From assembly GCA_042568205.1 (NCBI GenBank), contig JBHPJE010000004.1, positions 1,280 through 65,279 of the forward strand: a DNA stretch of 64,000 nt. The letters run 5' to 3'. A program made the translations under genes and the position numbers. The DNA comes from Patescibacteria group bacterium (GTDB lineage Bacteria > Patescibacteriota > Gracilibacteria > UBA1369 > PNNO01). The notes below the pieces were generated by a model, which saw nothing but the letters and a program-made list of their open reading frames with translations, was not told the DNA's origin and made no database searches. Within the stretch, counting starts at the first letter, position 1. Each line of letters starts with the position of its first letter. Shown one piece after another: positions 43,360-60,855 of the stretch.

Positions 43360-44108
43360 AATATGCTTATTTTCCTGGATGTGCATCCAAGCAAATGGCT
43401 AAAAAATATAATAATTCAACACGTAAAGCATGCGAGGCGCTAGGTATTGAGCTTGTTGATGTCCCTGAATTTAGTTGTTGTGGGGCCGGCGTTGTAAAAG
43501 AAGCAGATCATGAGCTAAATGAATATATGAATGAGCGTAATTTTAAAGTTGCTGATGGATTGGATATTATGACTATTTGTTCTACATGCGTAATTAATCT
43601 ACGCAAAGACTTATTTAGATTAAAAGGTGTTGGTAAATATGAAAATTTTAATGTGAAACATTGGCTTTGGGTGTTAAGTGAGGATTTAGGGATAGACAGG
43701 CTGCGTGCCTCAATTAAAAAACCTCTGACAGGGATTAAAATTGCTACTTACTATGGTTGCCATATAGTTAGACCTTCAAAATTTGTAAAAGATCATCAAA
43801 AAACAGATAATCCAAATAATTTTGAAGAGTTTGTTAAAGCTTTAGGTGCTATTCCGGTTGATCTTCCAACTAAAATGGATTGTTGTGGATTTCATTCAAA
43901 TCTCGTCGACCCTAAAGGTTCACAAAAAATGAGTGAAAAATACTTAAGCGATGCTAATAATCAAAAAGCAGATATAATTATTACGAACTGCCCTTTCTGT
44001 CATATGCAATTTGATATTTTCCAAAAGAAATACAAAATCCCTGTGCTTCATATGAGCGAAGTTCTTTGCATGGCACTTGGGATTCAAAAAACAGCGCCCT
44101 ATTTCTAG
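43341..44108 (+). CDS. CCG-domain (HdrB/SdhE/GlpC-like) cysteine-rich subunit
   Basis: Two CCG-type modules: PGC..FSCCGAG..CSTC and YGC..MDCCGFH..CPFC. Overlaps the Fe-S subunit gene by 19 nt. Confidence 0.8.
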   Translation: MEEKKIKYAYFPGCASKQMAKKYNNSTRKACEALGIELVDVPEFSCCGAGVVKEADHELNEYMNERNFKVADGLDIMTICSTCVINLRKDLFRLKGVGKYENFNVKHWLWVLSEDLGIDRLRASIKKPLTGIKIATYYGCHIVRPSKFVKDHQKTDNPNNFEEFVKALGAIPVDLPTKMDCCGFHSNLVDPKGSQKMSEKYLSDANNQKADIIITNCPFCHMQFDIFQKKYKIPVLHMSEVLCMALGIQKTAPYF

Positions 44109-44127
44109 AGCGCTGCTATATAGGTCA

Positions 44128-44164: not shown

Positions 44165-46879
44165 TTATTTACGTTTTCTTCTCATCCAAGCACCACCTAA
44201 TGCTACTCCAATTAATGGAATAATCAGTCCAGGACCAGTTTGAGGTGTAGCAGGTGCAGCGTGTAATGGATCACCAGCAGCTACATAAGTTGGAGCTGGC
44301 TCACTTGGCTCATCAGGTGCAGCGCCATGTACAGGGGCTGGAACATCTGGATCAGCTGGTTCAACTCGCGTTCCACCACCAGGTCCATTTCGATCTCTAT
44401 CATCTGGTGGAGTATAAGCTATTGAAGGTGGAGGCTCTTCTTCTTCCGGAGGGGTATAAGATAAAGAAGGTGGAGCGTCCTCTTCTTCAGGAGGTGTATA
44501 AGATAAAGAAGGTGGAGCGTCCTCTTCTTCAGGAGGTATATAAGATAAAGAAGGAGGAGTGTCATTATCTACAGTAACTGTGAATGTATCTAAACAATCT
44601 GTAAGTGGTTGTTGAGTTTCTGGATCTAAAGCAACTACTTCAATTGTCTCAGAATCATTAGTAGTTGGTCTTCCATTCATTAAGACTGTTAAAGCATCTA
44701 TTGTTAAAGGATTTGCAGAATCAAAAGTAATATCTGCATTTCCTGTAGTTGTTGAATAAGTTAAATTTGCCCAAGATCCTTGATCACCATCTATTTCAAC
44801 AGTTAAAGGTTGATCAACAAATCCACCAGCAGGAATAACAAACGCTGCTGATCCTTCTTGATCTGCTTCTGCAGGAGAAACAATACTTAATGATCTACAA
44901 ACTGGATCTGAAGGTTCCGGAGCTCTTGAAATTACTATTGAATCAATACATTCTGTCATTGGACGTCCTGTTACTTCCATAGCCTGAACCGTAAGCGTTA
45001 CAGGATCATCTACATATGGATTACCTGATAAACTTACCGTTTTATAATCTGAATAAATATTTGAGTCCTGCCCATCAAATACAAGTGAATCATTTGAAGC
45101 AAATATATGATAATTTGCAACATTGTCTGTTCCGGTAACTGTAAATTCTACTTTATCAGTTGTAGGATCAAAATCTTCTGTAATCTCCATATCATCATTA
45201 GAAGGCAACGTTATTTCTAAAAGTGAGCAATTTTCCGGTTCCGGTGCTTTTCTTGTAACTGTAATTTGATCTTTACACTCACCTATTTGATTACCACTGT
45301 CATCTACAGCTTGTACAAAAACAGTAACTGGTTTATCAAGTTCCGGACCACCACTTAATGATACTGAATTTTGATAAGAAATTACATCAGCGTCTTTACC
45401 ATCAAATACAAGTGAATCATTTGAAGCAGAAATTCTATACGCAGTACTTTCGTCTGTCCCGGTTGAAGTAAATTCTACTTTGTCAGTTGCAGGATCAAAA
45501 TCTTCAGAAATTTCCATACTATCTGTTGTAGGTTGGAGAATATCTATAGTTGAGCAATTTGGTTCTGGCTCTGGTGCACAAACTGGGTGAGTATTAAGTA
45601 CATCTTGCAATATTGAAAGTATTGTTGGAGATAGAGTAGTTGATTGTGCATAAGCTATTGTCAAAACACCTTCATTAAAATATACAACAGGGCTGGTAAT
45701 TGCTGATGCTGATGTTGCACCTGTAGCGCCAGTTGCATTTCTAATAGCTGTACTTGCTGGAAATAATGATAAAATATCAAAACTTGGATTATTTACAAAA
45801 GCTTCAAGTTCTACACATTGACAACCAGTAACGTATTCTCCTGCTAAATCCTTTAAATATGCAGTATATTCAGATTCAAGGGTCCCTCCTGCTTCTTGTG
45901 TTGATTTATCTATATCACTCATAACCTGAGCAACTAATGCTAATAAATTAAATTGGTTATCACATCCAGTACATTCTGCTTGATATTCGACAGCAACTTG
46001 CTTTGCTGCTACTAAATTATTTGTCTGTAAATAAAAGATCTCCTTATAAAGCTTTTCCTTACAAGTTGAAATACAACCCTCTTCAACCATCTTTAACAAT
46101 ACTTCGTTGAATTTGTCCCAATTTTTAGCCGTATATGCAGTTTTAAAATCATTAATATAATTATTACATCTTTCTTCTTGTGTTAATGGAGCTTTTTCAC
46201 AATTTTGAGCATACCAAATGTTAATACCTGTTGCCATTATTACATCCAATTGTGTCCTAACAGTTGGATGATTCAAATTATTCGCTGCTCCTGCTTTAAC
46301 TACATCTTGTGTTAAAGCACAATAATTTACAGGTTTACAAGATCCTGTTGCACCAACAATATTAGTGAAGATACTCGTATCATTACATGTACATGGTATT
46401 GGAATACGTAAAGGATTTTGGTCCTGACCATAAGTTGGTGTAAGTCCTAAACTTGCATCACAAACGCAAGAGGTTCCGTCAGATACAAGACCCCTGTCTG
46501 TAGGACATACCAAAGTGTCTTTATCACCAGTAACTAAGATTAAACCATCAGCTCCGATACTCTCACCTGAAGTTGTAACACCACTTAAAGTCCTTTCTGC
46601 AGGTTTTTCAACGTGTGTAAGAGTAAACCCTTGAAATCTTTCAGAAGTCTGAGAGTAAATAATCGCACCTACAATGGCAGCAATTACTACTAACACAGCA
46701 AAAAATGCAATTATTTTACCAGTAGTAAAAAATGGCTTTTTTTCTTTTGGAGCTTTTTTAGCCTCGACAGGCTTAGCAACTTCTGCCTTTGGAGCTTCAG
46801 GTACAGCAGGAGTAGGTTGAGTTGTTTCAGCAGGCTTCTTCTCTTCAGGAGAAGAGCTTGAAAGTAAAGGATTTTCCAT
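44165..46879 (-). CDS. surface protein with N-terminal TM anchor, duplicated ~110-aa modules, Pro/Glu tandem repeats and LPXTG-like C-terminal sorting signal (904 aa)
   Basis: C-terminus ..ATPQTGPGLIIPLIGVALGGAWMRRKRK (motif + hydrophobic segment + basic tail). Repeated modules ..DFDP.TDKVEFT.TGTD......ASNDSLVFDG.D... PPSLSY[IT]PPEEEDA repeats. Confidence 0.8.
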   Translation of the reverse strand: MENPLLSSSSPEEKKPAETTQPTPAVPEAPKAEVAKPVEAKKAPKEKKPFFTTGKIIAFFAVLVVIAAIVGAIIYSQTSERFQGFTLTHVEKPAERTLSGVTTSGESIGADGLILVTGDKDTLVCPTDRGLVSDGTSCVCDASLGLTPTYGQDQNPLRIPIPCTCNDTSIFTNIVGATGSCKPVNYCALTQDVVKAGAANNLNHPTVRTQLDVIMATGINIWYAQNCEKAPLTQEERCNNYINDFKTAYTAKNWDKFNEVLLKMVEEGCISTCKEKLYKEIFYLQTNNLVAAKQVAVEYQAECTGCDNQFNLLALVAQVMSDIDKSTQEAGGTLESEYTAYLKDLAGEYVTGCQCVELEAFVNNPSFDILSLFPASTAIRNATGATGATSASAITSPVVYFNEGVLTIAYAQSTTLSPTILSILQDVLNTHPVCAPEPEPNCSTIDILQPTTDSMEISEDFDPATDKVEFTSTGTDESTAYRISASNDSLVFDGKDADVISYQNSVSLSGGPELDKPVTVFVQAVDDSGNQIGECKDQITVTRKAPEPENCSLLEITLPSNDDMEITEDFDPTTDKVEFTVTGTDNVANYHIFASNDSLVFDGQDSNIYSDYKTVSLSGNPYVDDPVTLTVQAMEVTGRPMTECIDSIVISRAPEPSDPVCRSLSIVSPAEADQEGSAAFVIPAGGFVDQPLTVEIDGDQGSWANLTYSTTTGNADITFDSANPLTIDALTVLMNGRPTTNDSETIEVVALDPETQQPLTDCLDTFTVTVDNDTPPSLSYIPPEEEDAPPSLSYTPPEEEDAPPSLSYTPPEEEEPPPSIAYTPPDDRDRNGPGGGTRVEPADPDVPAPVHGAAPDEPSEPAPTYVAAGDPLHAAPATPQTGPGLIIPLIGVALGGAWMRRKRK
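44406..44573. repeat. four tandem copies of a 42-bp repeat inside the 904-aa gene
   Basis: Copies at 44406-44447, 44448-44489, 44490-44531 and 44532-44573. The two middle copies differ at one position. Encodes the PPSLSY-PPEEEDA units. Confidence 0.85.
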
Positions 46880-47094: not shown

Positions 47095-49347
47095 TTAGTT
47101 AGTTAATTCTCCGGAAACTGTAATAAATTGAGATGTCACATCAACAACATTTTGTGCATCAGCTATCTCAAGCACTACTTCATATGAACCTGGTGCTTTA
47201 AATATATGATTAGGTTTATGCTGTGTAGATGTTTCTCCATCACCGAAATCCCACTTATACCTTGCTATTGTACCAGTAGAACAAGAAGGATTAAATGTTA
47301 TATTTAAAGGAGCATCTCCTTCAGATTTAGAAGGTTCAAAACATGATTTTAATGGCACCTGTCTTACACTAATTAAAATATCAGTAGTTTCCTCAACATT
47401 ATCATTGGTTCTTACTTTAACTTTTGCAGTAAAATTACCTATTTTCCTATATTGATAAGTAACCTGCCCAGTATCACTTCTTTTTGGAGATCCATCTCCA
47501 AAGTCCCATTCATAACTAACAATTTGACCATCAGCATAAGTCGAGCTGGTTGCGTCAAATTCAACAGTTAAAGGCACTACACCAGAAACTGGTTCTGCTA
47601 ATAATGTAGCTTGTAAACCAGGTGATTCTGCTTTAACAAGTAAAGTTTCTTTTCCTTCAAATCCTGCTGAATCTACAACTACTAATGTAACATTATAGCT
47701 TCCAACAGTATTGAATGCATAAGAAGTTGTTTCACCAACAGAATCATAGGCTCCATCACCATCAAAATCCCATTTATAATCAACTATATCATCATCAGGA
47801 TCTGTACTTGAAGTTGCATCAAAATTCACTTCAAATGGAACAGTTCCTGTAATGAAATTATCATCTTTATTTGCTTTTTCTGGATTTGTAATCATTACTG
47901 CTTCAGGCGAAGAAGGCGCTAATTCAACATCAAGCACCATTTCTGATGTAGCAGTTTTATTTTCTTCATCAACAATCGTTAATACTACTTTATATGTACC
48001 GGCAGCACTAAATGAATGCTGAGCAGTTCTTGTTCTAGCTTTTGAAGTACCATCACCAAAATCCCATTCATAATTAGTGATTGTACCAGCAGGGCTTGTA
48101 GATTTAGAAGCATCAAAAGTATAAGTTTTATCTACATAGAATTTACTTGAATCATCATTTAATATTTCAATTTCTGCATTTGGTAAATTGCTTCCAGAAA
48201 CTTCAATTTTCTGTTCAGCAATTGCATATTCACCTTTTTGATTAGTAACCCGAAGAGTAACATTATATGTACCTAATTGATCGAATGTATGACTAAATAC
48301 TGGTCCGCCCTCTTCAAATCCCTGACCATCAATTTCCCAAGCATATGTACTAATTTGACCATCTGGATCCATTGAATCAGATCCATCAAACGTTACCCTT
48401 AATGGGGCTTCACCCTCAACAACATCTGCAATAATTATTGCAGTAACTGCTTCATCACCAATTGTAACTGTATGTTCAATTGTTTCACTTGATTCAGAAC
48501 CATCATTTTTATTCTTAAATGTAAGGATTAATTTAACATCATATCTGCCATCACCTTTTCTTTCGTAAATGTGAGTTTCAAGGCTTGTCCCAGGCCCAGA
48601 TTGACCATCACCAAAATCCCAAAAATACGAAATAACATCAAATGCTCGTGAATCATAAGGAAGATTTGAAGCATCAAATGTTACTTCAACCGGAGCAATT
48701 AAATTTATTGTTTCTTCAGGGATTGTAACAAGGCCTGAAGGTTTTGGTTCTGAAGGAATTTGCTGATTACTAAGATAGAACCAAGCTCCAATCCAAAGTC
48801 CAATAATAATTACTAATACTCCAAATGCACTACCTGCAAGCATGTATCCTCTTTTCTTTGCAAACTTATCCTCTTTTCTAGCCATTAAAGCTTTGAAAAT
48901 TCCACCAATCGACATAATAAATGCTACAAATGCACCAATTCCAAAGAATAAGTTAACAATTGTGATTAATGTGTTAATCAATTGTTGTTGATTGATTCCC
49001 AAAGATTGAGCAAGTGCACTTGATCCTGTTCCAGCTGTTCCAACAAAAACAAAGATTAATACAAGTAGCAGAATTGTTCCGCATCCAAATGTTCCTCCAC
49101 ATCCAATTATCACTTTCTTATTTCTAGCTCTTTCTTTTTGAATCATTTCTTCTTTTGTAAGAACTTTTTTTACACCTGGTTTTTGTAGAGGCTGTGGCGC
49201 TGGCTTCGCAGGTATTTGTTGTTGCGGCGCTGGAGCTGGTGGGGGCGTAGGTACCTGCGCTGGTTGCTGAGCTGGTTGCTGCGGTGCAGCTGCTGGCTCA
49301 GTGCCAAAATTTGCAGGCTGATTATTAGGTTGATTTGTTTCTTCCAT
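47095..49347 (-). CDS. membrane-anchored protein with Pro/Gln-rich N-terminus, pilin-like two-helix hairpin and six PKD-type domains (750 aa)
   Basis: Six WDFGDG-type motifs (YFWDFGDG, YAWEIDGQG, YEWDFGDG, YKWDFDGDG, YEWDFGDG, YKWDFGDG). Hairpin LINTLITIVNLFFGIGAFVAFIMSIGGIFKALMARKEDKFAKKRGYMLAGSAFGVLVIIIGLW. Confidence 0.85.
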   Translation of the reverse strand: MEETNQPNNQPANFGTEPAAAPQQPAQQPAQVPTPPPAPAPQQQIPAKPAPQPLQKPGVKKVLTKEEMIQKERARNKKVIIGCGGTFGCGTILLLVLIFVFVGTAGTGSSALAQSLGINQQQLINTLITIVNLFFGIGAFVAFIMSIGGIFKALMARKEDKFAKKRGYMLAGSAFGVLVIIIGLWIGAWFYLSNQQIPSEPKPSGLVTIPEETINLIAPVEVTFDASNLPYDSRAFDVISYFWDFGDGQSGPGTSLETHIYERKGDGRYDVKLILTFKNKNDGSESSETIEHTVTIGDEAVTAIIIADVVEGEAPLRVTFDGSDSMDPDGQISTYAWEIDGQGFEEGGPVFSHTFDQLGTYNVTLRVTNQKGEYAIAEQKIEVSGSNLPNAEIEILNDDSSKFYVDKTYTFDASKSTSPAGTITNYEWDFGDGTSKARTRTAQHSFSAAGTYKVVLTIVDEENKTATSEMVLDVELAPSSPEAVMITNPEKANKDDNFITGTVPFEVNFDATSSTDPDDDIVDYKWDFDGDGAYDSVGETTSYAFNTVGSYNVTLVVVDSAGFEGKETLLVKAESPGLQATLLAEPVSGVVPLTVEFDATSSTYADGQIVSYEWDFGDGSPKRSDTGQVTYQYRKIGNFTAKVKVRTNDNVEETTDILISVRQVPLKSCFEPSKSEGDAPLNITFNPSCSTGTIARYKWDFGDGETSTQHKPNHIFKAPGSYEVVLEIADAQNVVDVTSQFITVSGELTN

Positions 49348-49361
49348 ATTATTTAAATTAT

Positions 49362-52300
49362 TTATTCATTTAGAGAAAGTTTATAAAGACTTAAGCTTAT
49401 AATACCAAATAAAAGTATGCTTACAAGGATTGTTGAAATTTGTCCACTTGCAGAACCTAATAAATTTACCTGCATATTGCTTAGTCCTTGGTCAATATTG
49501 TTATCAAAAATAACATTAACTTCCTTCATATCGATTCCACCATCTTTACCATAAACTGTTAATCTTACTTTAATTTTTTCAGCTTCAGGATTAAAAGTTG
49601 TTGTATAAATACCTGCTTTTGATGTTACATAATCTTCATCATCAGCTTTTCTACCATTATTATTAGAATCTACATAAACATTATTATCAAAAACATATTT
49701 TTTAATACTTCCTTCTGAATTTGCAAAGTTAAAACTTGCCTCATCAAAACTGCCTTGTAGATGAATTGCCCCATCTTCAGGACTCAAAGCTGGATCTGTA
49801 AGGAAATCTGCCTTTAGATCCCCTACTGCTTCCTCGACTTCACCAGAATCTTTCACATTAACAAATTTAACAACTTCAGATTCACTATTGTAATTATCTG
49901 TAACAATTAATCTAGTTCTATAAATTCCAGGTTGTTCATAAGTCCAAATAGGATTTTTTTCAAATGAATCAATATCATTATCCAAAATACCATCTGCATC
50001 ACTATCAGCACTTGGTAAATTACTACTTAAATCGAAATCCCATTTAAATGTATCAAGAACAGTTCCTGCTACTTCATCAGCAACAGAATTATTAATGAAT
50101 CCTATTTTATTAGTTCCGATTTGAACAAATCTATAATCAGCAATTGGCTCACCAGCGCTTACATCAACATAAATTTTAACTGGCAATGAAATTGATTCTG
50201 CAAAGTTATCATCTATTACTTTAAGTCTTACATTAATACCTTCATCATCAGGTTGTGTATAAATGTGTGAAATTGTAGATTTAGTAACTTCTTCATTATT
50301 TCCAAATCCATCACCTTCAAAATCCCAGATATAACTTACTATTTTGCCATCAGGATCATACGAACTACTGGTAAAGTTAACTGTATCTCCTGCCATAACA
50401 CTTGATCGATCAACATTAAAGTTAGCAACAGGAATGTCATTTGGCCCGTTAATAACTGTAACTGATGGAAGTACATTTTCTTTAAGAATTTCTCGTGCAC
50501 TTATTGTAAAGTTTTCCTGATCAGTCATTTGAAGACCAAATTTATAAGTAACTGGATCACCTTCAGCCCCTCTTGTACCAAGAGTAACTACGGCTTGTGG
50601 ATCCTGAGTTATTGTATGCCCCATAGACATGCTTGAATCTTTTTCGTTGTAATACCACCATAGATATTTAACGATTTGTCCGTCTGGATCCTTTGCCCCA
50701 ACAGCTTCAAGCTTAACTCTCACTGGAGTAGTTAAATCGCTTTGCTGAGGAACTGCAGTAAATGCCTGCATAGTTGGAAGCTCTCCAACTACTTTAATAT
50801 TAATACCTGCAACTGAAGTTCTAGTTAAGTCATCTTTATCCAGCACTTTTAATGAAGCATAGTAATGACCAGGATCTTCTGGACTTAAATCAGTATAAGT
50901 ATGAGTTATTTTTTTCTCTGTTGATCTTTGAGTATCTCCAAAATCCCATTGATAACCAAGTCTTCTACTTGTTCCATCAACATTTAAAGATCTTTCTGCA
51001 TTAAATACAATTACAGATTTTCGATTCACTTCAATTGGCTCAGTAAAGTCATATATTTCATTCCCATCTACTTCAACTGCGATAACAGCAACAGGGCTAT
51101 TAGCATCACCTATAACAATTCTACGTTTAATTGTATTTTCATTATCTTCTCTATCAAATACAGTCAAACGAACATCGTAAGATCCTGCTAAATCGTAAAT
51201 ATGCTTAACATCAGTTCTACCACCAACCATATCACCTGAAACATCGGTAGTTTCATCTCCAAAATTCCATTCATATGCAACAGCGTTTTCAGAAATTCCC
51301 ATAAAATCAATAGTTGTCTCACCATTTTCATCAAGAATTCCTGCAGCCTGTTCTACATTTCCAAAAGCAACATCTAAGATACTACTAACTTGAATAATTT
51401 GTTCATGAATTATTCCTGGATTTTCAGGTTCATTCAAATCATCAACTTGAAGTGAAACTTTGTAGTCTCCAGTTCTAAAAAATTTTAAATACATTGATTC
51501 TTTATTAGCACCTTCTGTATCAACTTCTCCAGTTAAAGGATCAATAAAATCATAATCTTCATCAATTGCATGCACTTTCCATTTATAAATATACTGTCCA
51601 GTTTGTATATTTCCATCAGGATCCAAGCTTTGCGAACCATCTAGATAGTAAATATGAGGCTTACTGTTGTCTGGATTAGTAAAAATAAACTTAGCTTCAG
51701 GGGGCTGAGATTCAATTGTTAAAACAGATGAATCTGTAGCAACGTTCCCTAAATTGTCAGTCACTCTTAAATTAACTGCGTAAACTCCTGGGCTATCAAA
51801 AGATTTTATAAAACTTTGGTCGGTTTCCTCAGCAGCATATCTTAACTGCGTATTATTAATTTTCCAATTATATCCAGTAATCTGACCTCCATCTGTAGAT
51901 GAATTACTTGCATCAAAAGTAATATCTTCGTTTATTCGTGCAACATTACTAGGTAACACATCAACTCTAGCAGCAGGAGAATCAACGACTACTTCAAATA
52001 CTTTTCTATCTTTAATTCCTCTTGAATCTTCAACTTCAATTACAACAGGATATGTTCCTTCTTCACCGTAATAATGTGTTTGAATATCCTGAGCAACCAT
52101 TTCTCCAAAGATTCTATCGCTTCCATCTCCAAATGCCCAACCAATTGTTTGAACATATGTTTCACCTGCTTCCTGAGCTTGTTCTGTTTGGAATCCTCCA
52201 CGAGTTTCAGAAGCATCAAAAGTAATACCAATGTCTCTTGCTTCTGTTAAAGTTACATTTAATCTATTTTTATCAATTACAAGGAATCCATCTTTGTAGA

Positions 52301-53804
52301 AACTCATGTAACCAAGATATCTTTCCCCTACTGCAACCTGTAAATTTATTTGAGATGCAGGTGGTTTAATTGTGATGTCCTTATATGCAATGCCTGAGGC
52401 AATTGCATTAGTTGAATCACCTTTAATTTTTAATTTGATAATATATGAACCAACTTTTCTATATACATGTGAAGTAGCGAATTTCCCTTCAACTAATGTT
52501 CCGTCACCAAAATCCCATTCAATATCTCCTTCATTAATACTTTGGAAATCCGGTCTTGCAGACTTCAATGCATCAACATTCACTATTAATGGTGCATTAC
52601 CTTCATCAACATCAGCTGAAATAACCGCTGCAACAAACTGAATATTCATCACAACCTGATGGAGTTCGTTTAATGCTTCTAATGCATCAACTACTTTTAC
52701 ATTTGAAGGAATATCAAATGCTGTTGGGATTAATAATTCTAGTGCATCAACAGCCCTATCATAAGCAACTCCAAAATCAGTTTCAGCAGTTGTAACTAAT
52801 CCTGATTCATCAATTAAAGCTTTTAAATCTTCTAGATTATTCAGAATTTCGTCGATTTTATCTGCAAAGTCTAACAAGTTTGCTCTCCAAATACTTTCAC
52901 CTTCTGGACCAGCTTGTGTTAGATAATTATCAATATTTAATTGTAGTTCAGCACTTTCATCAACCCACCAAAAAGTCCAATCGTCTTCTAATTGTTGTTG
53001 AGATTGTCTTAAGAAAATATCCACATAATCTTCTGCATCACTTGATACTTCAGAAACTCTACTTAACTCTCCAGATGCATTTTTAACTCTTTGAAGTGCT
53101 CTTTTAATATCACTTAAGAAAACATGTAGTTGTTCTGCTCGATCAACATAAGGCACTGATTCAAGATCACCAAGTGCATCATTCACATCAACATAATGTG
53201 CGTAATTAGTTGCAAGATCACGTGCAGCCTTTTCAACTTGATTTGCTGCAGCAAAGAATAACCTTCTTACACTTTGAGTTTGATCACCTGTTAATTCACT
53301 TGGAGCAGAACTTGAAAGTGTAGTTTCAGTATCTGGGCCAAGATCAGTTCCTTTTCCTACTCCTTTTATTACTGTGTTGACTAAAGCATAAGAAACTAAA
53401 ATTATCACAATTCCAATAACTGCGTACATTACAGATTTTTTTCCTTTTGTTGTTTGTTCTTCAGCTCCTCCTGCAATTACATACATAAATCCTCCGTAAA
53501 TCACCATTATAACTGCAACAAGCCCAAGGAATCCAAGAACAAAGTTAACTGCATTAACAATAAAATCTCTTAAATTTGTTTGCTGAGTTAATGTAGGATC
53601 ATATCCTTCTGAACTTGGTGCTTGCAGTCCTCCCTGAAATTGAGTAAAGCTTGTTGCTTCCTCGCCTCCACAAGAGAAAAATCCACCAGTAGATTTTGCC
53701 AAATCTCCACAAAGATCCGCACTTGCGGTTTGTACAGATACAAAGAATGTCGCAATTAATGCGATAATAAATGTAAGTAATATGTATTTGTTTAGTTTCT
53801 TCAT
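49362..53804 (-). CDS. giant surface protein (1480 aa): N-terminal VirB2/TrbC-like pilin hairpin, helical region, about nine PKD-type domains, C-terminal TM
   Basis: Signal peptide. NLRDFIVNAVNFVLGFLGLVAVIMVIYGGFMYVIAGGAEEQTTKGKKSVMYAVIGIVIILVSYALVNTVI (nt ~53350-53590). Repeated [WF]xFGD-type PKD motifs. C-terminal ISTILVSILLFGIISLSLY. Confidence 0.85.
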   Translation of the reverse strand: MKKLNKYILLTFIIALIATFFVSVQTASADLCGDLAKSTGGFFSCGGEEATSFTQFQGGLQAPSSEGYDPTLTQQTNLRDFIVNAVNFVLGFLGLVAVIMVIYGGFMYVIAGGAEEQTTKGKKSVMYAVIGIVIILVSYALVNTVIKGVGKGTDLGPDTETTLSSSAPSELTGDQTQSVRRLFFAAANQVEKAARDLATNYAHYVDVNDALGDLESVPYVDRAEQLHVFLSDIKRALQRVKNASGELSRVSEVSSDAEDYVDIFLRQSQQQLEDDWTFWWVDESAELQLNIDNYLTQAGPEGESIWRANLLDFADKIDEILNNLEDLKALIDESGLVTTAETDFGVAYDRAVDALELLIPTAFDIPSNVKVVDALEALNELHQVVMNIQFVAAVISADVDEGNAPLIVNVDALKSARPDFQSINEGDIEWDFGDGTLVEGKFATSHVYRKVGSYIIKLKIKGDSTNAIASGIAYKDITIKPPASQINLQVAVGERYLGYMSFYKDGFLVIDKNRLNVTLTEARDIGITFDASETRGGFQTEQAQEAGETYVQTIGWAFGDGSDRIFGEMVAQDIQTHYYGEEGTYPVVIEVEDSRGIKDRKVFEVVVDSPAARVDVLPSNVARINEDITFDASNSSTDGGQITGYNWKINNTQLRYAAEETDQSFIKSFDSPGVYAVNLRVTDNLGNVATDSSVLTIESQPPEAKFIFTNPDNSKPHIYYLDGSQSLDPDGNIQTGQYIYKWKVHAIDEDYDFIDPLTGEVDTEGANKESMYLKFFRTGDYKVSLQVDDLNEPENPGIIHEQIIQVSSILDVAFGNVEQAAGILDENGETTIDFMGISENAVAYEWNFGDETTDVSGDMVGGRTDVKHIYDLAGSYDVRLTVFDREDNENTIKRRIVIGDANSPVAVIAVEVDGNEIYDFTEPIEVNRKSVIVFNAERSLNVDGTSRRLGYQWDFGDTQRSTEKKITHTYTDLSPEDPGHYYASLKVLDKDDLTRTSVAGINIKVVGELPTMQAFTAVPQQSDLTTPVRVKLEAVGAKDPDGQIVKYLWWYYNEKDSSMSMGHTITQDPQAVVTLGTRGAEGDPVTYKFGLQMTDQENFTISAREILKENVLPSVTVINGPNDIPVANFNVDRSSVMAGDTVNFTSSSYDPDGKIVSYIWDFEGDGFGNNEEVTKSTISHIYTQPDDEGINVRLKVIDDNFAESISLPVKIYVDVSAGEPIADYRFVQIGTNKIGFINNSVADEVAGTVLDTFKWDFDLSSNLPSADSDADGILDNDIDSFEKNPIWTYEQPGIYRTRLIVTDNYNSESEVVKFVNVKDSGEVEEAVGDLKADFLTDPALSPEDGAIHLQGSFDEASFNFANSEGSIKKYVFDNNVYVDSNNNGRKADDEDYVTSKAGIYTTTFNPEAEKIKVRLTVYGKDGGIDMKEVNVIFDNNIDQGLSNMQVNLLGSASGQISTILVSILLFGIISLSLYKLSLNE

Positions 53805-53866
53805 TATTTTATTTTAATTTTTCCTTATATTATAGCAGAAAATTAAGGTTTTTTCAATTGTAAATG

Positions 53867-54811
53867 TTAAGTTCCTGGTTCAAGCTGAATAACTGTATTT
53901 ACCAGTGCAAAAGCGCCTAAACCGAGCACCATTGCAATAACAGCACCAATCAATACTTTTTTAGCATTTTGCGTCTTTTCTTCGTTTCCTGTAGCTGTTA
54001 CATAAAGGAAACCTCCATACATTGAAGCAATAAATGCTGATATTGAAATAAATGCTGATGTAAAGTTGGTAAATCTAACAATCATTAATATTCCCTGCCT
54101 TGCTTCTGGAATCTTTGAACCCTTATCCGGGAATAAGAAATCCTGAACAACAAATTCAGCAAGTCCAATAATAAATAAACCTACAACAAGCCAAGTAATT
54201 TGCTTTTTCACCTTTGTTTGAGCTTCTTCATTACCTGCACTTACAAGAAGTCTAAATCCTGCAACAACCATCATAAATATTGCTAAAGCACCTGCAACAA
54301 GCATGGCAATATTATAAAATCCTTTAATTTGTCTTGTACCTTCAGTTGCTGCTATCTGAGCAGTAGCTTCACTATCATAAACCTCTCCTTCAAGCCCAAA
54401 AAACACATTTTTGACTAACACATCGGCAACTATTATCATAACAACACCAGTAGCAAGCATTATCATTTGCTCTTTCATCTTTGGCATAACTTCGTCAATC
54501 TTCTTTCTGGCTAAGATAAGCCTTCCGCCAGTGATTATAATCATAATAACCGCAATTGAAGCTATTAAAAATTTAAAGAAATCCAAAGTGAAATATATTG
54601 CTGTAGTTATATTAGAAACTCCTTGCTTTTTAATTGCATCACCATGAGTCAAAGTGTCGTATGTCGGTAGTTCAGTTGCCCCTTCAATTATTTCAAGATA
54701 TCCATCAAATTTTGCATTAACCTGTTCATTCATAACAATATTAACTGATAAAACCAGTGTAGTTATTGCCATGACTAAGGCCAATGATGTTAGGAATTTA
54801 TTAATTTTCAT
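53867..54811 (-). CDS. membrane protein composed of three tandem VirB2/TrbC-like pilin hairpins (314 aa)
   Basis: Signal/TM, then three units of hydrophobic helix - G-G/[AS]-x-x-[LY] turn with N/G-E-E-x-x-T/K-K - hydrophobic helix. Example: FISISAFIASMYGGFLYVTATGNEEKTQNAKKVLIGAVIAMVLGLGAFALVNTVI. Confidence 0.75.
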   Translation of the reverse strand: MKINKFLTSLALVMAITTLVLSVNIVMNEQVNAKFDGYLEIIEGATELPTYDTLTHGDAIKKQGVSNITTAIYFTLDFFKFLIASIAVIMIIITGGRLILARKKIDEVMPKMKEQMIMLATGVVMIIVADVLVKNVFFGLEGEVYDSEATAQIAATEGTRQIKGFYNIAMLVAGALAIFMMVVAGFRLLVSAGNEEAQTKVKKQITWLVVGLFIIGLAEFVVQDFLFPDKGSKIPEARQGILMIVRFTNFTSAFISISAFIASMYGGFLYVTATGNEEKTQNAKKVLIGAVIAMVLGLGAFALVNTVIQLEPGT

Positions 54812-54818
54812 ATTTGAT

Positions 54819-55952
54819 TTATGGGCTAAATTGACCAGCTACAATCGTACTTACTATTGCAAATGAACCGTAAATAAGCACCATCCCGGCAATTGAAAGG
54901 AATATAATTTTCTTTGCTTTATTTGTTTGTTCTTCCTTTCCTCCAGCTGTTGCATACATAATTGCACCCACAATAAGCATTAGAATTGCAAGCGGAGCTA
55001 CAAATGTAACAGCCATATTAGTAAATCCAATCATTTCCTGAACTGCTCGTGTTGGATTAATAGCAGGATCCAATCCCATAGAAGAGTATTTTGAAGGATC
55101 AACAATATATAAAACTTTATCAATTAAAGTAGTAGCTAAAATTATGGCAACTAAACCAACTGAAGTATAAATAAGATTTTTCTTATCTAAAGCTATACTC
55201 TCTTCACTTCCTGCCAGACCAATAAGCCTGATCCCATTTCTAATAAACATAAATATCGCAACTCCTCCAATCAAATATTTAATAAATGTAATTATAACTC
55301 TGGTTTCCTGTTTAAATAATGCTGCCTGTCGAATAATATTATTCGGATCTTTTAAAAATCCACCTCTGGCACATTCAGTCTCCCCCGGAGCACAGGCAAC
55401 TGATAAAACTTTTGCAAATTCATCACCAAATCCAATTATTAATAAACCAATTATTCCGTATGTTATGGCATTTTTTTGCTTTGTAATCGTATCATCATTA
55501 CCCTGTGAAATAATTAATTTAAGTGCAGAAAGCATTATAAATAGCACAGCAACTGCACCCAGAATAAACTTTGCATTTCTAATAAGACCATTAGCAAATT
55601 CACTAAGCATTCCAGTAGGCGTAGTACTTGATAATTTAGGGAAATCCGGATACGCCGCAGGATTTAAAGGAATATAAATATAATCATCTTTGTATGCACC
55701 AGGTTCGGTTACAGGTGTTGAAGTAGTTGTTGGTGAAGTTTTAGCAGGAGCTACTGCGCTTGGAGCAGACCCTGCACCACTTCCCCCAGTCCCTTGAGCA
55801 GCAGTTCCACCTGAGCTACCACCACCAGTACCAGATGTAACATCCTGCGCACTAGTAATTGGTGCAAGCATCGCTAAAACTATTCCTAAAACAAAAAGAA
55901 ATGCTACGAATTCTTTTAAAAATCTACTAATTGTTTTTTGTTTTTGGGCCAT
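54819..55952 (-). CDS. membrane protein with Gly/Ser/Thr-rich N-terminal region and three tandem VirB2/TrbC-like pilin hairpins (377 aa)
   Basis: Same unit three times. Example: MAVTFVAPLAILMLIVGAIMYATAGGKEEQTNKAKKIIFLSIAGMVLIYGSFAIVSTIV. 7-nt gap to the next gene. Confidence 0.75.
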   Translation of the reverse strand: MAQKQKTISRFLKEFVAFLFVLGIVLAMLAPITSAQDVTSGTGGGSSGGTAAQGTGGSGAGSAPSAVAPAKTSPTTTSTPVTEPGAYKDDYIYIPLNPAAYPDFPKLSSTTPTGMLSEFANGLIRNAKFILGAVAVLFIMLSALKLIISQGNDDTITKQKNAITYGIIGLLIIGFGDEFAKVLSVACAPGETECARGGFLKDPNNIIRQAALFKQETRVIITFIKYLIGGVAIFMFIRNGIRLIGLAGSEESIALDKKNLIYTSVGLVAIILATTLIDKVLYIVDPSKYSSMGLDPAINPTRAVQEMIGFTNMAVTFVAPLAILMLIVGAIMYATAGGKEEQTNKAKKIIFLSIAGMVLIYGSFAIVSTIVAGQFSP

Positions 55953-55963
55953 TTATTTAATTT

Positions 55964-58357
55964 TTAGGCTTTTGCTTTTTTTGGTTGTTTCTTCTTTTTG
56001 ATTGCTTCTTCGAAAACTGGGATGAGAGCATCGGTATGTTTTATTAATTGTTTTCTTAATTTATCTGATCTGACTATATCTCTTGAACTTCCATTATTTT
56101 TTTTAAATCTAATAAATTTTATTATTTTAGGTTGGTCCTTCTTGTTGAAATCTTCCAACTTCCCATTTAATTTTTTTTGTAAACTTTTAAGTTTATCAAA
56201 TTTAGTTAAAGCCGTCATTCGCTCATTTATTGTTCTTTGTAATTTTGAAGGAAGCTTCTTAATATCATTTGCATCAGGCTTTTTAAATGTAACTTTAATT
56301 GTATCTTTGTTATAAAATGGAACTCTTTTGCTGGTCATTTTATTTCCCTTCAACAGATAAGCTGTCTTTTCACCTGGAACATACAATGCTTCTCTTTTTC
56401 CTTTTGGGCCATCGATTGTGATATATGCAAACTTATCTCTTACGTTATTAAAATTCATTAATTGATGGATTTTTCTATTTAATAATTTTCTTTCATTCCT
56501 ATTAGGCTTTTCTTTTCCAACAGTAAATTTATAAGGATCTTTTGCATCGTAATTAATCAAACCTTTAAAATCAGGATTTAAATGGGCTTCCATATTTGCT
56601 CTATCCTTCTTAAATTTCTCTTTTGCTTTTTGAGCCTCAGTTTTCTCTGACGCTGCTTTTTGTTCTTCTTTGGTCAATACTCCAAGTTCTTTTGAACCGC
56701 TTCTATCAATCTTTCCTTTCTTATCCTGCTTTGCTACCAATAATTTATTTGTTCTTGTATGAAATAAATATGTACGTCCTCCTGCTGTGATTTTAAATTC
56801 ACCCTGACCACCACCTTCATTTCTAAAATACACTTTTGTTCCTCCTTCATTGATTACGAGTCCATAGCCACCACGTGTACTTCCAGGCAATCTTGCATTC
56901 TTGGCATAATCTCTTAATGATTGCTTTACTTGATTCAATTCTCCCATATTTTTCATTTTCAATTGACTCAAATTCTTTTGAAAACTAGCCATTACTGAAT
57001 GAGCTTTTATTACATGAAGTGCTTTTAAATGATCTGGATGTCCACCTTCCTGAGGAGTACTTAAATCAAAACCACCGCCTGCTTCAGTCCCATCTCCTGT
57101 CATATAACATACTACTTTACCTTGTCTATAAATAACCATTGTAGGATATCCCCTGTATGATTTATTCGGATCTTTTGGTTTTGGCCAGTTTATTGCTGCA
57201 GCTTCATAGCCATCAGGTAATGATGTTGTTTTTACTTTTCCAGGACTGCCATTATGTAAAAGACCTTTCACATTGTTGAGAACTTTATTTTTTGCTTCAC
57301 TAAAATTAGGTGCAGTCCCATTTTCAAGATGATTTAGATTCTCAACCATAGTTCTTTGACTTTCACTTAATTTTTTCAATTCTTCTTTGCTCATTCTCCC
57401 AGGAGCTTTTATTGGAGTGCCTGGCTTTGGAGCTGGTCCAATACTTTCATAAAGAGGATCTGATGGTGGCATCTCATTAGGCTTTGTAGCATTAGCAGGA
57501 TTTGGCGGAATTGTTATTTTTTGTTTTTTTGCTTCTTTATCAATTTCTGTATTTAAATCTGTTAAGAGTTCGTTTCTTTTTTTAGGATCTGTTTTTGCAT
57601 CAGCTAATTTTTTTATTTTTTTAATTGTTTGTAAACTCTCATAAGCCTGCTTATATTGTTTTGATCCTTTCATTGCCTGATTATGTGTATATTTGCCTCT
57701 TTTTTTCTCTAATACTCCTTCAAGGAATTTAATTTTATAGGCAATATCTGCACTTAATTTTTCATTTTTTTGTTCAATGGTTTGCGGTTTTTCATTTTGC
57801 GCCTCTGGTTTTCCTGCGGCAGCTTTTGGAGGTGCAGCTGGTGTTCGAGAAGGTTGTGCAGTAGCTTGAGTTGCAGGTTTTCTTTTAGAAATATTGATAA
57901 ATTTCTTTTTCTTACCTCTACGTTTTCCGCTTCTTAAATATGCTTGCTCATTATGATAATCAATTCTACTTTGAAGATGCTGATCAATCCCTTTTAATGT
58001 TTGTTTTTTTACTTCCCCTTTTAATTTTTTGGCTTTTTCTAATTTTTCTTTCAATAATTTCACAGTATCTTTCATCACACTTGCTCTCTCTTTAATTTTT
58101 TCTGCTTGCCTTCTTCTTCTTTTACTTTTACTTTTTGACAATTTATTTCCCTTCTCCTCAAGATTAGTTGCGACTTCATCAAATTGATTCAACTTATGTT
58201 CAACATCTTTTTGTAGTTCATCAGCACTTTTTGGTTTTTGAGAAGGCCCTTTTGGCGCTCCTCCAGGCGTAGCCGGAGGTTTCCCTCCGGGACCCATATA
58301 CAAAAACTTACTTTCAAATAGGAAATTATTAATATATTTTTGAAACAAATTTTTCAT
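55964..58357 (-). CDS. very basic Lys-rich hypothetical protein (797 aa), first gene of the surface cluster
   Basis: Long ORF with no TM segment. Lys/Arg runs (KSKSKRRRRQ, GKRRGKKKK), Pro-rich linkers and a Gly-rich central beta-like region. Confidence 0.75.
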   Translation of the reverse strand: MKNLFQKYINNFLFESKFLYMGPGGKPPATPGGAPKGPSQKPKSADELQKDVEHKLNQFDEVATNLEEKGNKLSKSKSKRRRRQAEKIKERASVMKDTVKLLKEKLEKAKKLKGEVKKQTLKGIDQHLQSRIDYHNEQAYLRSGKRRGKKKKFINISKRKPATQATAQPSRTPAAPPKAAAGKPEAQNEKPQTIEQKNEKLSADIAYKIKFLEGVLEKKRGKYTHNQAMKGSKQYKQAYESLQTIKKIKKLADAKTDPKKRNELLTDLNTEIDKEAKKQKITIPPNPANATKPNEMPPSDPLYESIGPAPKPGTPIKAPGRMSKEELKKLSESQRTMVENLNHLENGTAPNFSEAKNKVLNNVKGLLHNGSPGKVKTTSLPDGYEAAAINWPKPKDPNKSYRGYPTMVIYRQGKVVCYMTGDGTEAGGGFDLSTPQEGGHPDHLKALHVIKAHSVMASFQKNLSQLKMKNMGELNQVKQSLRDYAKNARLPGSTRGGYGLVINEGGTKVYFRNEGGGQGEFKITAGGRTYLFHTRTNKLLVAKQDKKGKIDRSGSKELGVLTKEEQKAASEKTEAQKAKEKFKKDRANMEAHLNPDFKGLINYDAKDPYKFTVGKEKPNRNERKLLNRKIHQLMNFNNVRDKFAYITIDGPKGKREALYVPGEKTAYLLKGNKMTSKRVPFYNKDTIKVTFKKPDANDIKKLPSKLQRTINERMTALTKFDKLKSLQKKLNGKLEDFNKKDQPKIIKFIRFKKNNGSSRDIVRSDKLRKQLIKHTDALIPVFEEAIKKKKQPKKAKA

Positions 58358-58754: not shown

Positions 58755-59300
58755 ATGGCTAAACAAGCTGCAGGTACAGGTCGACATTGGTATGTGGTTC
58801 ACACATATTCAGGATATGAAGATGCTGTACGCGAAGCTTTACAACAAAGAATTGAAACAATGAATATGCAGGATTATATATTCGATGTTGTTGTGCCAAA
58901 AGAAACTCAAATTGTTATTAAAAAAGGTGAACCTACTACAGAAGAAAAAAGAATTTTCCCAGGTTATGTTCTTGTTGATATGACAGTAACTGATGAATCA
59001 TGGTATGTGGTTCGAAATACTCCAAATGTAACTGGATTTGTAGGATCTGGAACTACTCCGGTTCCTGTTTCTGAAGATGAATGGAAGGTTATTGAAAAAC
59101 ATATGGGTAAGGAAGAACCAAGATTTAAAATCGACTTCAGCATTAGTGATACTGTTACAGTTCTTGATGGACCTTTTGCAAATTATGAAGGTATCATCAA
59201 TAAAATCGACGAAGAAAAAGGTAAAGTTACTGTTATGATCACTATCTTCGAACGTGAAACTCCTGTTGAACTCGACTTTACACAAGTTAAGAAGAAATAA
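58755..59300 (+). CDS. nusG: transcription termination/antitermination factor NusG
   Basis: HWYVVHTYSGYEDAV, FPGYVLVDM, NTPNVTGFVG, and KOW region DTVTVLDGPFANYEGII. Confidence 0.95.
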   Translation: MAKQAAGTGRHWYVVHTYSGYEDAVREALQQRIETMNMQDYIFDVVVPKETQIVIKKGEPTTEEKRIFPGYVLVDMTVTDESWYVVRNTPNVTGFVGSGTTPVPVSEDEWKVIEKHMGKEEPRFKIDFSISDTVTVLDGPFANYEGIINKIDEEKGKVTVMITIFERETPVELDFTQVKKK

Positions 59301-60004
59301 TGAATAAGCTTACAACAATTTTTATCATTGTGACGGTTTTGATTGTCAGTGTCGTTGGCACTCTTCTTGGTATTAGATATTTTTCAGGAGACAATCAAGA
59401 GTCTGAACAACCGCTGTATGTAGCAGAAGAAGAGCCTGAAGACACTTCACCTCCTCCGACAATAGCATTACCTTTTGATGAGCCAGAAGGACCACCAGAA
59501 CCAATAACAACTCCGTCTTCCCCTCCTCCATCAATACCTTCTCCTTTTGATTTTATGGAAGAAGAGGAATTAAAAGCACCAATTATGGCTGGCATTGATT
59601 TAAAAATGATTAATGATGCTGGTTTTAAAGATAATACTTTAGATATTTCGGAATTTGATGGAATCGTTTTTAATGATTTCAACATGGCTGAGTACAATGA
59701 CGACGATCACATTTTATATATTTTATTGTCTGGTGAAGAAGAATCTGCAAAAATTACTGAACTCTTCTTTCCGTCTTTAGAAATCTCTAACGAGGTTTAC
59801 GCTTCTCTAAAGGCAAAAATGGCAGATAGTGGGTACTTTGAATTAAATGAAACGAATCAATATGGAGACCACTCATATTTTGCCAATCATGCTACAGAAA
59901 AGAACTCTGTATTTTTAGTTGTAAAGATAAGAGAGCGCTTGTATACTCTTCACTACCCAGCTAAGAACCACAATAAAATTAAGAATTTAATTAACCAATT
60001 ATAG
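59300..60004 (+). CDS. hypothetical membrane-anchored protein with Pro-rich linker (234 aa), inserted between nusG and rplK
   Basis: ATG shares one base with the nusG stop (TAATG). TM IFIIVTVLIVSVVGTLLGI. Stop lies 3 nt before rplK. Confidence 0.7.
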   Translation: MNKLTTIFIIVTVLIVSVVGTLLGIRYFSGDNQESEQPLYVAEEEPEDTSPPPTIALPFDEPEGPPEPITTPSSPPPSIPSPFDFMEEEELKAPIMAGIDLKMINDAGFKDNTLDISEFDGIVFNDFNMAEYNDDDHILYILLSGEEESAKITELFFPSLEISNEVYASLKAKMADSGYFELNETNQYGDHSYFANHATEKNSVFLVVKIRERLYTLHYPAKNHNKIKNLINQL

Positions 60005-60444: not shown

Positions 60445-60855
60445 ATGCCTCCAAAACCTCACAAAAGAAGCAAAATCTCAATTGTTAGATTCATTTATTT
60501 GTATCTGATCAGCGCAATAACATTTATTGTTTTTCTCATTGGAGCAGTGACAATCGTTGATCAAGGTTTAAAATCTTTTGTATTTGGAGTTGAAGAATAT
60601 GACTACAACAGACCAGTTCCGGTAATGATCGATTGTGAAAGATATGTTAGTCTTGATGATGAATCATATGAAAATTGTTTAAAAAAAGTTGAATTAATAG
60701 ACGAAATAGGAGAACCAGAAAAATCAATATTCACAAACGAAGCAAGAAAAAGACTTTCAATCGGAGTTGCACAAGTATTAGTTGCATTCCCTTTATGGAT
60801 TTTCCACTGGGGAATAATTGAAAGAGATCGAAAGAAAAAATATCCTAAAAAATAA
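60445..60855 (+). CDS. hypothetical two-TM membrane protein (136 aa), inserted between rplK and rplA
   Basis: TM segments FIYLYLISAITFIVFLIGAVTIV and VAQVLVAFPLWIFHWGII. 11 nt after the rplK stop. Confidence 0.6.
   Translation: MPPKPHKRSKISIVRFIYLYLISAITFIVFLIGAVTIVDQGLKSFVFGVEEYDYNRPVPVMIDCERYVSLDDESYENCLKKVELIDEIGEPEKSIFTNEARKRLSIGVAQVLVAFPLWIFHWGIIERDRKKKYPKK

Follow-up and report, generated by a model that had tools for sequence, protein, structure and literature searches.

The closest described relatives of the proteins treated here are the VirB2-like pilins of Patescibacteria. In this phylum, 441 arrays of 2-11 such genes with ~25% identity have been reported and a role in variation or host range was suggested for them; VirB4 occurs in 2,417 of 3,035 genomes of this phylum, and in Gracilibacteria the parts of a type IV secretion system (T4SS) are scattered, not clustered, with VirB6 undetectable (PMC12102498). 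The T4SS cluster of Southlakia epibionticum contains six divergent pilins (reviewed in PMC12857230), and the pilin series in this cluster is essential (PMC10633639). Throughout the searchable literature, Patescibacteria VirB2-like pilins appear only as separate genes, and no paper on covalently fused hairpins was found. Here we analyse two adjacent genes, A and B, in a stretch of 64,000 nucleotides (nt) from contig JBHPJE010000004.1 of a Patescibacteria group bacterium (the window, that is, the whole of the DNA analysed, whose numbering is used below), each of which encodes three VirB2-like hairpins in a single chain. The pair had been pointed out earlier by a model that read only the letters and the open reading frames (ORFs) of the window (the original prediction). 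The genes and their hairpins, the latter placed by the T4SS_pilin profile and hydropathy, are as follows.

54819 to 55952, minus strand: gene A, 377 residues, signal peptide ending ...ITSA↓Q, Gly/Ser/Thr/Pro-rich segment predicted to be exterior, three VirB2-like hairpins
55383 to 55616, minus strand: hairpin A1
55092 to 55328, minus strand: hairpin A2
54822 to 55055, minus strand: hairpin A3
53867 to 54811, minus strand: gene B, 314 residues, signal peptide ending ...VNA↓K, three VirB2-like hairpins
54374 to 54616, minus strand: hairpin B1
54113 to 54346, minus strand: hairpin B2
53870 to 54091, minus strand: hairpin B3

The two reading frames of 314 and 377 residues are separated by a gap of 7 nt (54812-54818), as originally reported, and the peptides quoted at that time were found again, MYGGFLYVTATGNEEKTQNAKKVLIGAVIAMVLGL in the third unit of B and IVGAIMYATAGGKEEQTNKAKKIIFLSIAGMVLIY in the third unit of A. 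A hydropathy scan gave an N-terminal hydrophobic signal segment and six hydrophobic helices for each protein. Alignment of the thirds revealed one unit, consisting of a long helix, the turn G-G/N-E-E-x-T-x-x-K-K-K and a second long helix, which is present three times in A and three times in B with a unit-to-unit identity of 11-45% within the window. The Pfam family T4SS_pilin (PF18895, curated cut-off 26.6 bits) recognizes three separately significant stretches in each protein (79.3 bits for B and 77.5 bits for A, E ~1e-22). Scanning each third on its own, a check proposed with the original prediction, placed five of the six units above the cut-off (A1 35.6, A2 40.8, A3 27.1, B1 30.1 and B2 51.9 bits) and B3 just below it (24.8 bits, E 2.3e-5). 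The AlphaFold2 model of B, built on a 45-sequence alignment, shows a signal helix and three hairpins of ~35 + 32 residues (helices 65-100/105-137, 148-190/195-226 and 237-272/277-307), with a predicted local distance difference test score (pLDDT) of 69 and a predicted template modelling score (pTM) of 0.47; one hairpin modelled alone reached a pLDDT of 84. Hydropathy and models thus show the form of a PF18895 unit, ~70 residues with two hydrophobic helices around a short polar loop, located behind a Sec signal. Past the final helix only 6 residues of the B chain are left. Because the Pfam stretches, which are independent of our own alignments, the scans of single thirds and the AlphaFold2 hairpins all give the same unit, the triple repeat in A and B is real and far beyond chance, and the claim of one hairpin repeated three times per protein stands.

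Two features set A apart from B. Behind its signal peptide, A carries a low-complexity stretch of 50 residues (36-85) rich in Gly, Ser, Thr and Pro, and in its first linker, which is predicted to be exterior, a Cys-x7-Cys pair (residues 185-199, SVACAPGETECA); neither has a counterpart in B. The class III signal of the type IV pilus (PilA-type) proteins (G↓F/M-xxxE) was not found in either protein, the N-termini of which are ordinary Sec signals, MKINKFLTSLALVMAITTLVLSVNIVMNEQVNA↓K in B and ...LAPITSA↓Q in A.

The hairpins do not end with B. Two more, beyond those listed in the original prediction, were located in the next two genes of the same strand, one in C and a probable one in D, which brings the tally over four consecutive genes to 3+3+1(+1).

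49362 to 53804, minus strand: gene C, 1480 residues, signal peptide, one terminal-type hairpin (see below), ~7 PKD domains, C-terminal hydrophobic anchor
53349 to 53585, minus strand: hairpin C1, residues 74-152 of C, T4SS_pilin profile
47095 to 49347, minus strand: gene D, 750 residues, Pro/Gln-rich N-terminus, three N-terminal membrane helices, 6 PKD domains
48760 to 48996, minus strand: probable divergent hairpin of D, motif MARKEDKFAKKRG, unit hidden Markov model (HMM) and hhalign

For C1, PF18895 scored 36.7 bits in the whole of C (residues 76-144) and 44.5 bits when the unit was scanned alone. The hairpin of D (residues 128-189) corresponds to the last two of its three N-terminal membrane helices. 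It matched the unit HMM, in the training of which D had no part, at E 3.5e-4, and no further ORF of the window matched. Alignment of 29 D proteins showed that the three membrane helices are conserved, and hhalign related this alignment to the B3 class with 83% probability; Pfam and NCBIfam do not recognize the D hairpin, which we rate as probable.

The assignment of the units of A and B to the VirB2/TrbC-like pilin superfamily, as originally proposed, is supported by three sets of profile matches: every unit matches PF18895, Pfam TrbC/VirB2 is matched at E<=0.01 by 32 of 45 B orthologues (best 4.8e-11), and B passes NCBIfam NF045849, the Mycoplasma pilin-like conjugal transfer protein of integrative and conjugative elements (ICEs), with 45.3 bits against a cut-off of 40. 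The latter model was not reached by A (23.4 bits), and the single units C1, B3 and B2 scored 30-38 bits. C1 alone gave 27.7 bits (E 3.3e-6) with Pfam TrbC. That the NF045849 match implies an equivalent function is doubtful, since the model, of 80 positions, describes a small protein of a mobile element; no usable literature was found for NF045849 or its member Mbov_0395. The original prediction was to be abandoned if the units had lacked any such profile match and the chains had looked like a transporter-like bundle. Matches were found, and searches for a transporter fold or family returned none, only Pfam noise such as Cyt_bd_oxida_II at E 0.051.

Neither the pair nor its surroundings is peculiar to this organism. 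Homologues of A (112) and B (73) keep a near-constant length down to ~30% identity; they come under the names Peregrinibacteria, Gracilibacteria and Altimarinota and are labelled ‘pilin’ or ‘hypothetical’ in the databases. The cassette was surveyed at 40 loci of species-representative genomes, where ORFs that we called ourselves were annotated with the unit HMM and by BLAST comparison with the proteins of the window. All 40 loci come from the lineage of Peregrinibacteria, Peribacteria and Gracilibacteria, including three labelled Nitrospirota. A complete A with three hairpins followed by a complete B with three hairpins was present at 36 of them, the other four being cut by a contig end or mis-called. 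C, which has 1,400 to 2,000 residues and a single hairpin, follows B directly at all 39 loci that continue past B, and D follows C. Divergently upstream of the cassette lies nusG, at 31 of the 31 loci with enough flank, in the setting nusG-rplK-rplA. The order A-B-C-D was also seen in independent gene calls on a 1.37-Mb and a 267-kb contig. A gene-calling or frameshift artefact was rejected, as the fusions are stop-free at 36 of the 40 species loci and their linkers have no signal peptides. Judged from these gene orders, the tripled A and B are no one-off but a conserved orthologous pair of the whole lineage, and the cassette is evidently a core chromosomal module and not a mobile conjugation module. 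As for the taxonomic labels, contigs L025, L027, L033 and L035 with the cassette are filed as ‘Nitrospirota bacterium’ and one homologue (P0130) as ‘Pseudomonadota bacterium’, which is most likely due to binning contamination by Patescibacteria contigs.

The hairpins within the cassette are not interchangeable. HMMs specific for each position, built from 38-40 species, gave 103-133 bits at their own position and 17-80 bits at the other positions. Two types were distinguished: A3, B3 and C1 form a ‘terminal’ type (59-80 bits among one another), and A1, A2, B1 and B2 an ‘internal’ type (41-60 bits). An idea that internal-type hairpins are confined to chains was dropped, as standalone pilins of other lineages score about equally on terminal and internal models (the final homologue search behind this test gave 5 matches). 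The split should thus be taken as a specialization within these cassettes, not as a universal rule. The linkers rank with the best-conserved segments. Of the 14 columns that do not vary in the B family, 7 (G139, G142, G164, G231, T248, N249 and F250) fall in linkers or just before a helix, within the motifs FFG-x-EGEVY, FP-xx-G and TNF. With half of the invariant columns in or near them, the linkers appear to be structured parts under selection, not loose tethers.

Chains of fused hairpins were found well beyond this lineage. A profile of the seven window units was searched against 1.84 billion cluster representatives and retrieved 56,116 proteins at E<=1e-3, of which 250 reach E<=1e-30. Among the best 150 matches, 149 contain at least three matched stretches, and the chains span 3 to 15 hairpins: mostly 3, many 4, some 5, 6, 7, 8 (P0186), 11 (P0257) and 15 (P0293). 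Re-analysis of 142 multi-hairpin proteins with the terminal and internal models separated two kinds. The first comprises old, diverged chains with 22-35% identity between hairpins in the order internal-internal-terminal, and in diverged chains of 4, 6 and 8 hairpins the single terminal-type hairpin is always the last. The second consists of recent amplifications with near-identical hairpins (45-91% identity). In one other lineage a 6-hairpin chain is located within an ordinary array of single-hairpin pilin genes, and in another cassette an 8-hairpin chain comes first, then a lone pilin of the terminal type, a PKD fusion with a hairpin of that type and lastly a PKD protein. Multi-hairpin VirB2-like proteins are, as far as these profile matches tell, a broad class of which the window pair is one instance, not a unique case. 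The original statement that a triplicated hairpin is not a described architecture must therefore be divided: none was found in the searchable literature, yet multi-hairpin chains are common in the databases.

Two further observations belong to these chains. On contig L051 (111-3799), two adjacent six-hairpin genes of 619 and 599 residues are stop-free only under genetic code 25, which makes them a 6+6 version of the pair in a lineage that reads UGA as glycine. The 15-hairpin P0293 (L047, 10001-15328) and the 11-hairpin P0257 are TrbC/T4SS_pilin-like proteins with cysteine-containing linkers and SDDP-x-x-R loops; the contig of the 15-hairpin gene also carries archaeal-type genes (ribosomal protein L39e, Csa1/Cas4), with no T4SS genes within the flank.

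From the domain identity, hairpin architecture, position classes and four-gene cassette, which were observed or computed, we infer a topology, a co-assembly with C and D and a role in attachment. The reading that we tentatively prefer, though it falls a little short of an even chance, is that A and B are stable, unprocessed six-helix proteins of a mixed VirB2-like lattice with C and D, which carries PKD adhesins for host attachment. In such a scheme, A and B would be inserted by Sec and their signal peptides cleaved at TSA↓Q and VNA↓K, respectively. The hairpins would then run out-in-out, with the short charged loop (GNEE..K.KK) in the cytoplasm and the conserved linkers on the exterior; this topology is suggested because the helices alternate and because the Gly/Ser/Thr/Pro-rich stretch of A is typical of an exterior segment. 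VirB2-type pilins, before assembly, likewise have the hairpin loop in the cytoplasm and their ends outside. In A and B the six hairpins, which are not equivalent, might pack beside the single hairpins of C and D into one mixed lattice, be it a short stalk or ring or a unit that recurs along a pilus. Lateral co-packing is proposed because order, number and identity of the hairpins are fixed lineage-wide, the hairpins of C and D match and other lineages split the set differently. The lattice would be the central part of a permanent organelle for attachment, the PKD arms of which bind the host cell, and the covalent links would set the order of the hairpins and a 1:1:1 ratio, like the fused rotor hairpins of V-type and A-type ATPases. 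Since the cassette contains no standalone major pilin and the positions are so unequal, we lean towards a finite or short structure over a filament driven by a distant VirB4. Of the two functions originally suggested for the chains, that of a pre-assembled protomer is plausible. A bolder form of the preferred reading treats the fused chains as a ‘Rosetta stone’: the many divergent Patescibacteria pilins would be obligate ordered partners of a single mixed assembly, not interchangeable or antigenic variants, and in the Peregrinibacteria-Gracilibacteria lineage 3+3+1+1 hairpins with PKD arms would constitute a new, constitutive surface organelle, encoded next to the nusG-ribosomal protein operon and apart from VirB4. 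It would be built without a classical T4SS machine and be a stalk or conduit, walled by hairpins, for host attachment or feeding. This form is unlikely in our estimation.

Several results weigh against the preferred reading. The link to conjugative pilins is one of profiles alone, and the window proteins themselves stay under the cut-off of Pfam TrbC/VirB2 (PF04956, 27.9 bits), with 16.8 bits for B and 23.2 bits for whole C. Neither the unit alignment nor the full-length alignment, used as a profile, retrieved a sequence relative from the PDB. Foldseek of the whole protein against the PDB returned generic helical repeats (best a 14-3-3 protein, E 0.28, template modelling (TM) score ~0.2), and a single hairpin gave nothing at E<1. 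The top match of the latter was ATP synthase subunit c (E 1.5, TM score 0.65), a generic hairpin fold; conjugative pilins were not singled out and none was in the top 50 for one hairpin. Because a helical hairpin is so generic, Foldseek is unable to tell a pilin from other hairpins. Homology to the ATPase c subunit was rejected, as there was no profile match and no match to Pfam ATP-synt_C. The mutual placement of the three hairpins of B is uncertain at the pTM given above, the loop charges support the proposed topology weakly, and the D hairpin is marginal by its unit HMM and hhalign values and its absence from Pfam and NCBIfam. Moreover, no VirB4, VirB3, VirB6 or VirD4 was found in the 64-kb window, nor was any T4SS gene among those called at two related cassette loci, flanks of 10 kb included.

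As originally noted, no VirB4, VirD4, VirB6 or PilB/PilT was found by Pfam in the window ORFs of at least 100 residues not nested in longer ones. NCBIfam added nothing for the large unannotated window proteins, no PilD is present in the 64 kb, and no window protein matched a VirB6/TrbL polytopic channel in Pfam or NCBIfam. At the 40 genome loci only homologues of window genes were labelled, with no search aimed at a T4SS ATPase there.

These negatives bear on the strongest of the rival explanations, a true T4SS pilus, in which A and B would be major subunits polymerized by a VirB4 machine encoded elsewhere, three lattice positions being added per chain, for the transfer of DNA or protein. The hairpins do fall in the VirB2/TrbC superfamily, and an unlinked machine would be in keeping with VirB4 in 2,417 of 3,035 Patescibacteria genomes and with the scattered T4SS parts of Gracilibacteria (PMC12102498). 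The exterior linkers are compatible with a pilus lattice too, because a VirB2 hairpin begins and ends on one side of the membrane. This arrangement is known from the structures of the F-pilus and T-pilus. However, no T4SS gene turned up in the window or among the gene calls inspected at related cassette loci, and the cassette resides in a housekeeping setting by nusG-rplK-rplA instead of a mobile element or T4SS cluster. Its six positions are strongly non-equivalent, unlike those of a major pilin, and extraction of six helices at once would be at odds with the known five-fold-symmetric assembly by one pilin at a time. Taken together, these points make a true T4SS pilus unlikely.

Somewhat less likely again is a generic membrane module, for which the ‘pilin’ label would be misleading: the hairpin would be an anchor or oligomerization element, and A and B, unrelated to pili or secretion, would form a small channel or scaffold or serve envelope integrity. 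No assembly ATPase lies nearby, the hairpins of C and D are exactly at the position of a membrane anchor, and the fold of one hairpin is generic, with ATP synthase subunit c and alpha-pore-forming toxin hairpins as the top Foldseek matches; some orthologues have been named automatically as ‘cytochrome bd subunit 2’ or ‘Ca2+/Na+ antiporter’. Against this stand the matches specific for pilin families, including NF045849 of a conjugative element and TrbC at 4.8e-11 in orthologues, and the lack of any match to a transporter family or fold. In addition, conservation of the charged loop motif and of the exterior linkers suggests a role beyond that of an anchor.

The known pilins VirB2, TrbC and TraA undergo proteolytic processing, and the second helix of each hairpin, which would pass from inside to outside after a basic loop, resembles a signal sequence. 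A polyprotein cut between the hairpins into three single-hairpin pilins per chain, the other function originally suggested, is nevertheless very improbable: cleavage at the conserved linker motifs is conceivable, but the linkers hold 7 of the 14 invariant B-family columns, the hydrophobic stretches of 20-23 residues exceed the length typical of signal peptidase I substrates, the second helices have bulky ends (..NVFFGLEGE, ..DFLFPDKGS, ..KVLSVACAP, ..KVLYIVDPS) with no small residues at -1/-3, unlike VNA↓K and TSA↓Q, and the order and count, which are fixed across 40 species and also in 4-, 6- and 8-hairpin chains, indicate that the linkage itself is under selection.

The genes and sites next to the cassette are listed below.

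55964 to 58357, minus strand: upstream gene, 797 residues, very lysine-rich, no membrane helix, no family match, 11 nt before gene A
53829 to 53857, minus strand: promoter-like site in the 62-nt gap between B and C, TTGAAA, 17-nt spacer, TATAAT, TG extension, 11 of 12 matches to the consensus, consensus match only
44165 to 46879, minus strand: downstream gene, 904 residues, one N-terminal membrane helix, Cys-rich exterior, present in a subset of related loci
44090 to 44117, minus strand: terminator-like hairpin and T-run after the 904-residue gene, consensus match only

Homologues of the 797-residue gene (340-936 residues) were found only in the closest relatives, and it lies outside the conserved core. 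The terminator-like hairpin at 44090 to 44117 is likely the end of this block of same-strand genes. Elsewhere, the window contains nusG, rplK, DUF5671, rplA, dUTPase, tmk, bipA, SLH-domain proteins and two tRNAs. Inside the nusG-rplK-rplA operon, a protein of 234 residues without family match is encoded between nusG and rplK (59300-60004, plus strand) and was seen at most of the 40 loci. A DUF5671 membrane protein lies between rplK and rplA (60445-60855, plus strand) and was detected by BLAST at about one third of them. At 40905-44108 (plus strand), a flavoprotein resembling fumarate reductase/succinate dehydrogenase is encoded together with an iron-sulfur subunit and a CCG (HdrB-like) cysteine-rich protein; such respiratory-type equipment is unusual in a small-genome Patescibacterium, and at related loci too the CCG gene lies at the flank of the cassette. 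Two large SLH-domain proteins (38495-40837 and 19176-21035, plus strand), one of them also with DUF4215 repeats, point to an SLH-anchored surface layer in the organism. Two giant proteins on the minus strand contain no pilin hairpin, one of 1962 residues with only a weak protein-kinase-like match (12842-18730) and one of 1446 residues with SdrD_B and GEVED domains (31875-36215).

How the cassette relates to known systems can be taken from the most remote to the nearest. In the rotor rings of V-type and A-type ATPases, c/K hairpins are doubled, tripled or fused 13-fold. The likeness to A and B is one of analogy, not homology, in that hairpins normally provided by separate chains are fused in tandem with fixed stoichiometry; the two have no sequence relationship, A and B lack an ion-binding carboxylate motif, and ATPase genes are absent from their surroundings. 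With the Mycoplasma ICE proteins Mbov_0395 and MMCAP2_0565 (NF045849), B shares a score above the cut-off and both belong to organisms with a single membrane, and the Mycoplasma system is of the T4SS class to which the Patescibacteria system is related; it differs in being built on a small protein of a mobile element, as opposed to a chromosomal three-hairpin protein here.

The pilins VirB2, TrbC and TraA of the T-pilus and F-pilus (PF04956) have in common with A and B the membrane hairpin, the polar charged loop and termini on the same side, and the profile similarity is weak to moderate (27.7 bits for C1, E 4.8e-11 for the best orthologue). The known pilins, however, have one hairpin per chain, are encoded in T4SS operons and are often cyclized or acetylated, and searches by sequence and by fold, the latter with a hairpin too generic to be telling, gave no match of the window proteins to the solved pilins. 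VirB2-type pilins are the textbook case of one hairpin per protein; chains of 3 to 15 hairpins with position-specific identities would constrain both how such hairpins pack and how they are extracted from the membrane.

The arrays of VirB2-like genes in Patescibacteria (PF18895; Southlakia epibionticum ML1; the survey of Quinonero-Coronel et al. 2025) are the nearest relatives, with the same hairpin domain in adjacent paralogues of ~25% identity, which are Sec-exported, come from the same phylum and have a presumed role in host contact. PF18895 as described in papers is one hairpin per small protein; A and B carry three each, the paralogues being fused as two chains of three. The cassette here is also not beside virB4, and it is always accompanied by hairpin-anchored PKD giants and located by nusG-rplK-rplA lineage-wide. 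The cassette offers a conserved candidate module of host attachment for a class of uncultivated, host-dependent bacteria, of a size small enough for expression and structural work. The published role of the arrays in variation or host range fits poorly with fusions of fixed order, and the fusions give a testable reading of the essential Patescibacteria pilin arrays, namely that these might be ordered mixed assemblies, not variants.

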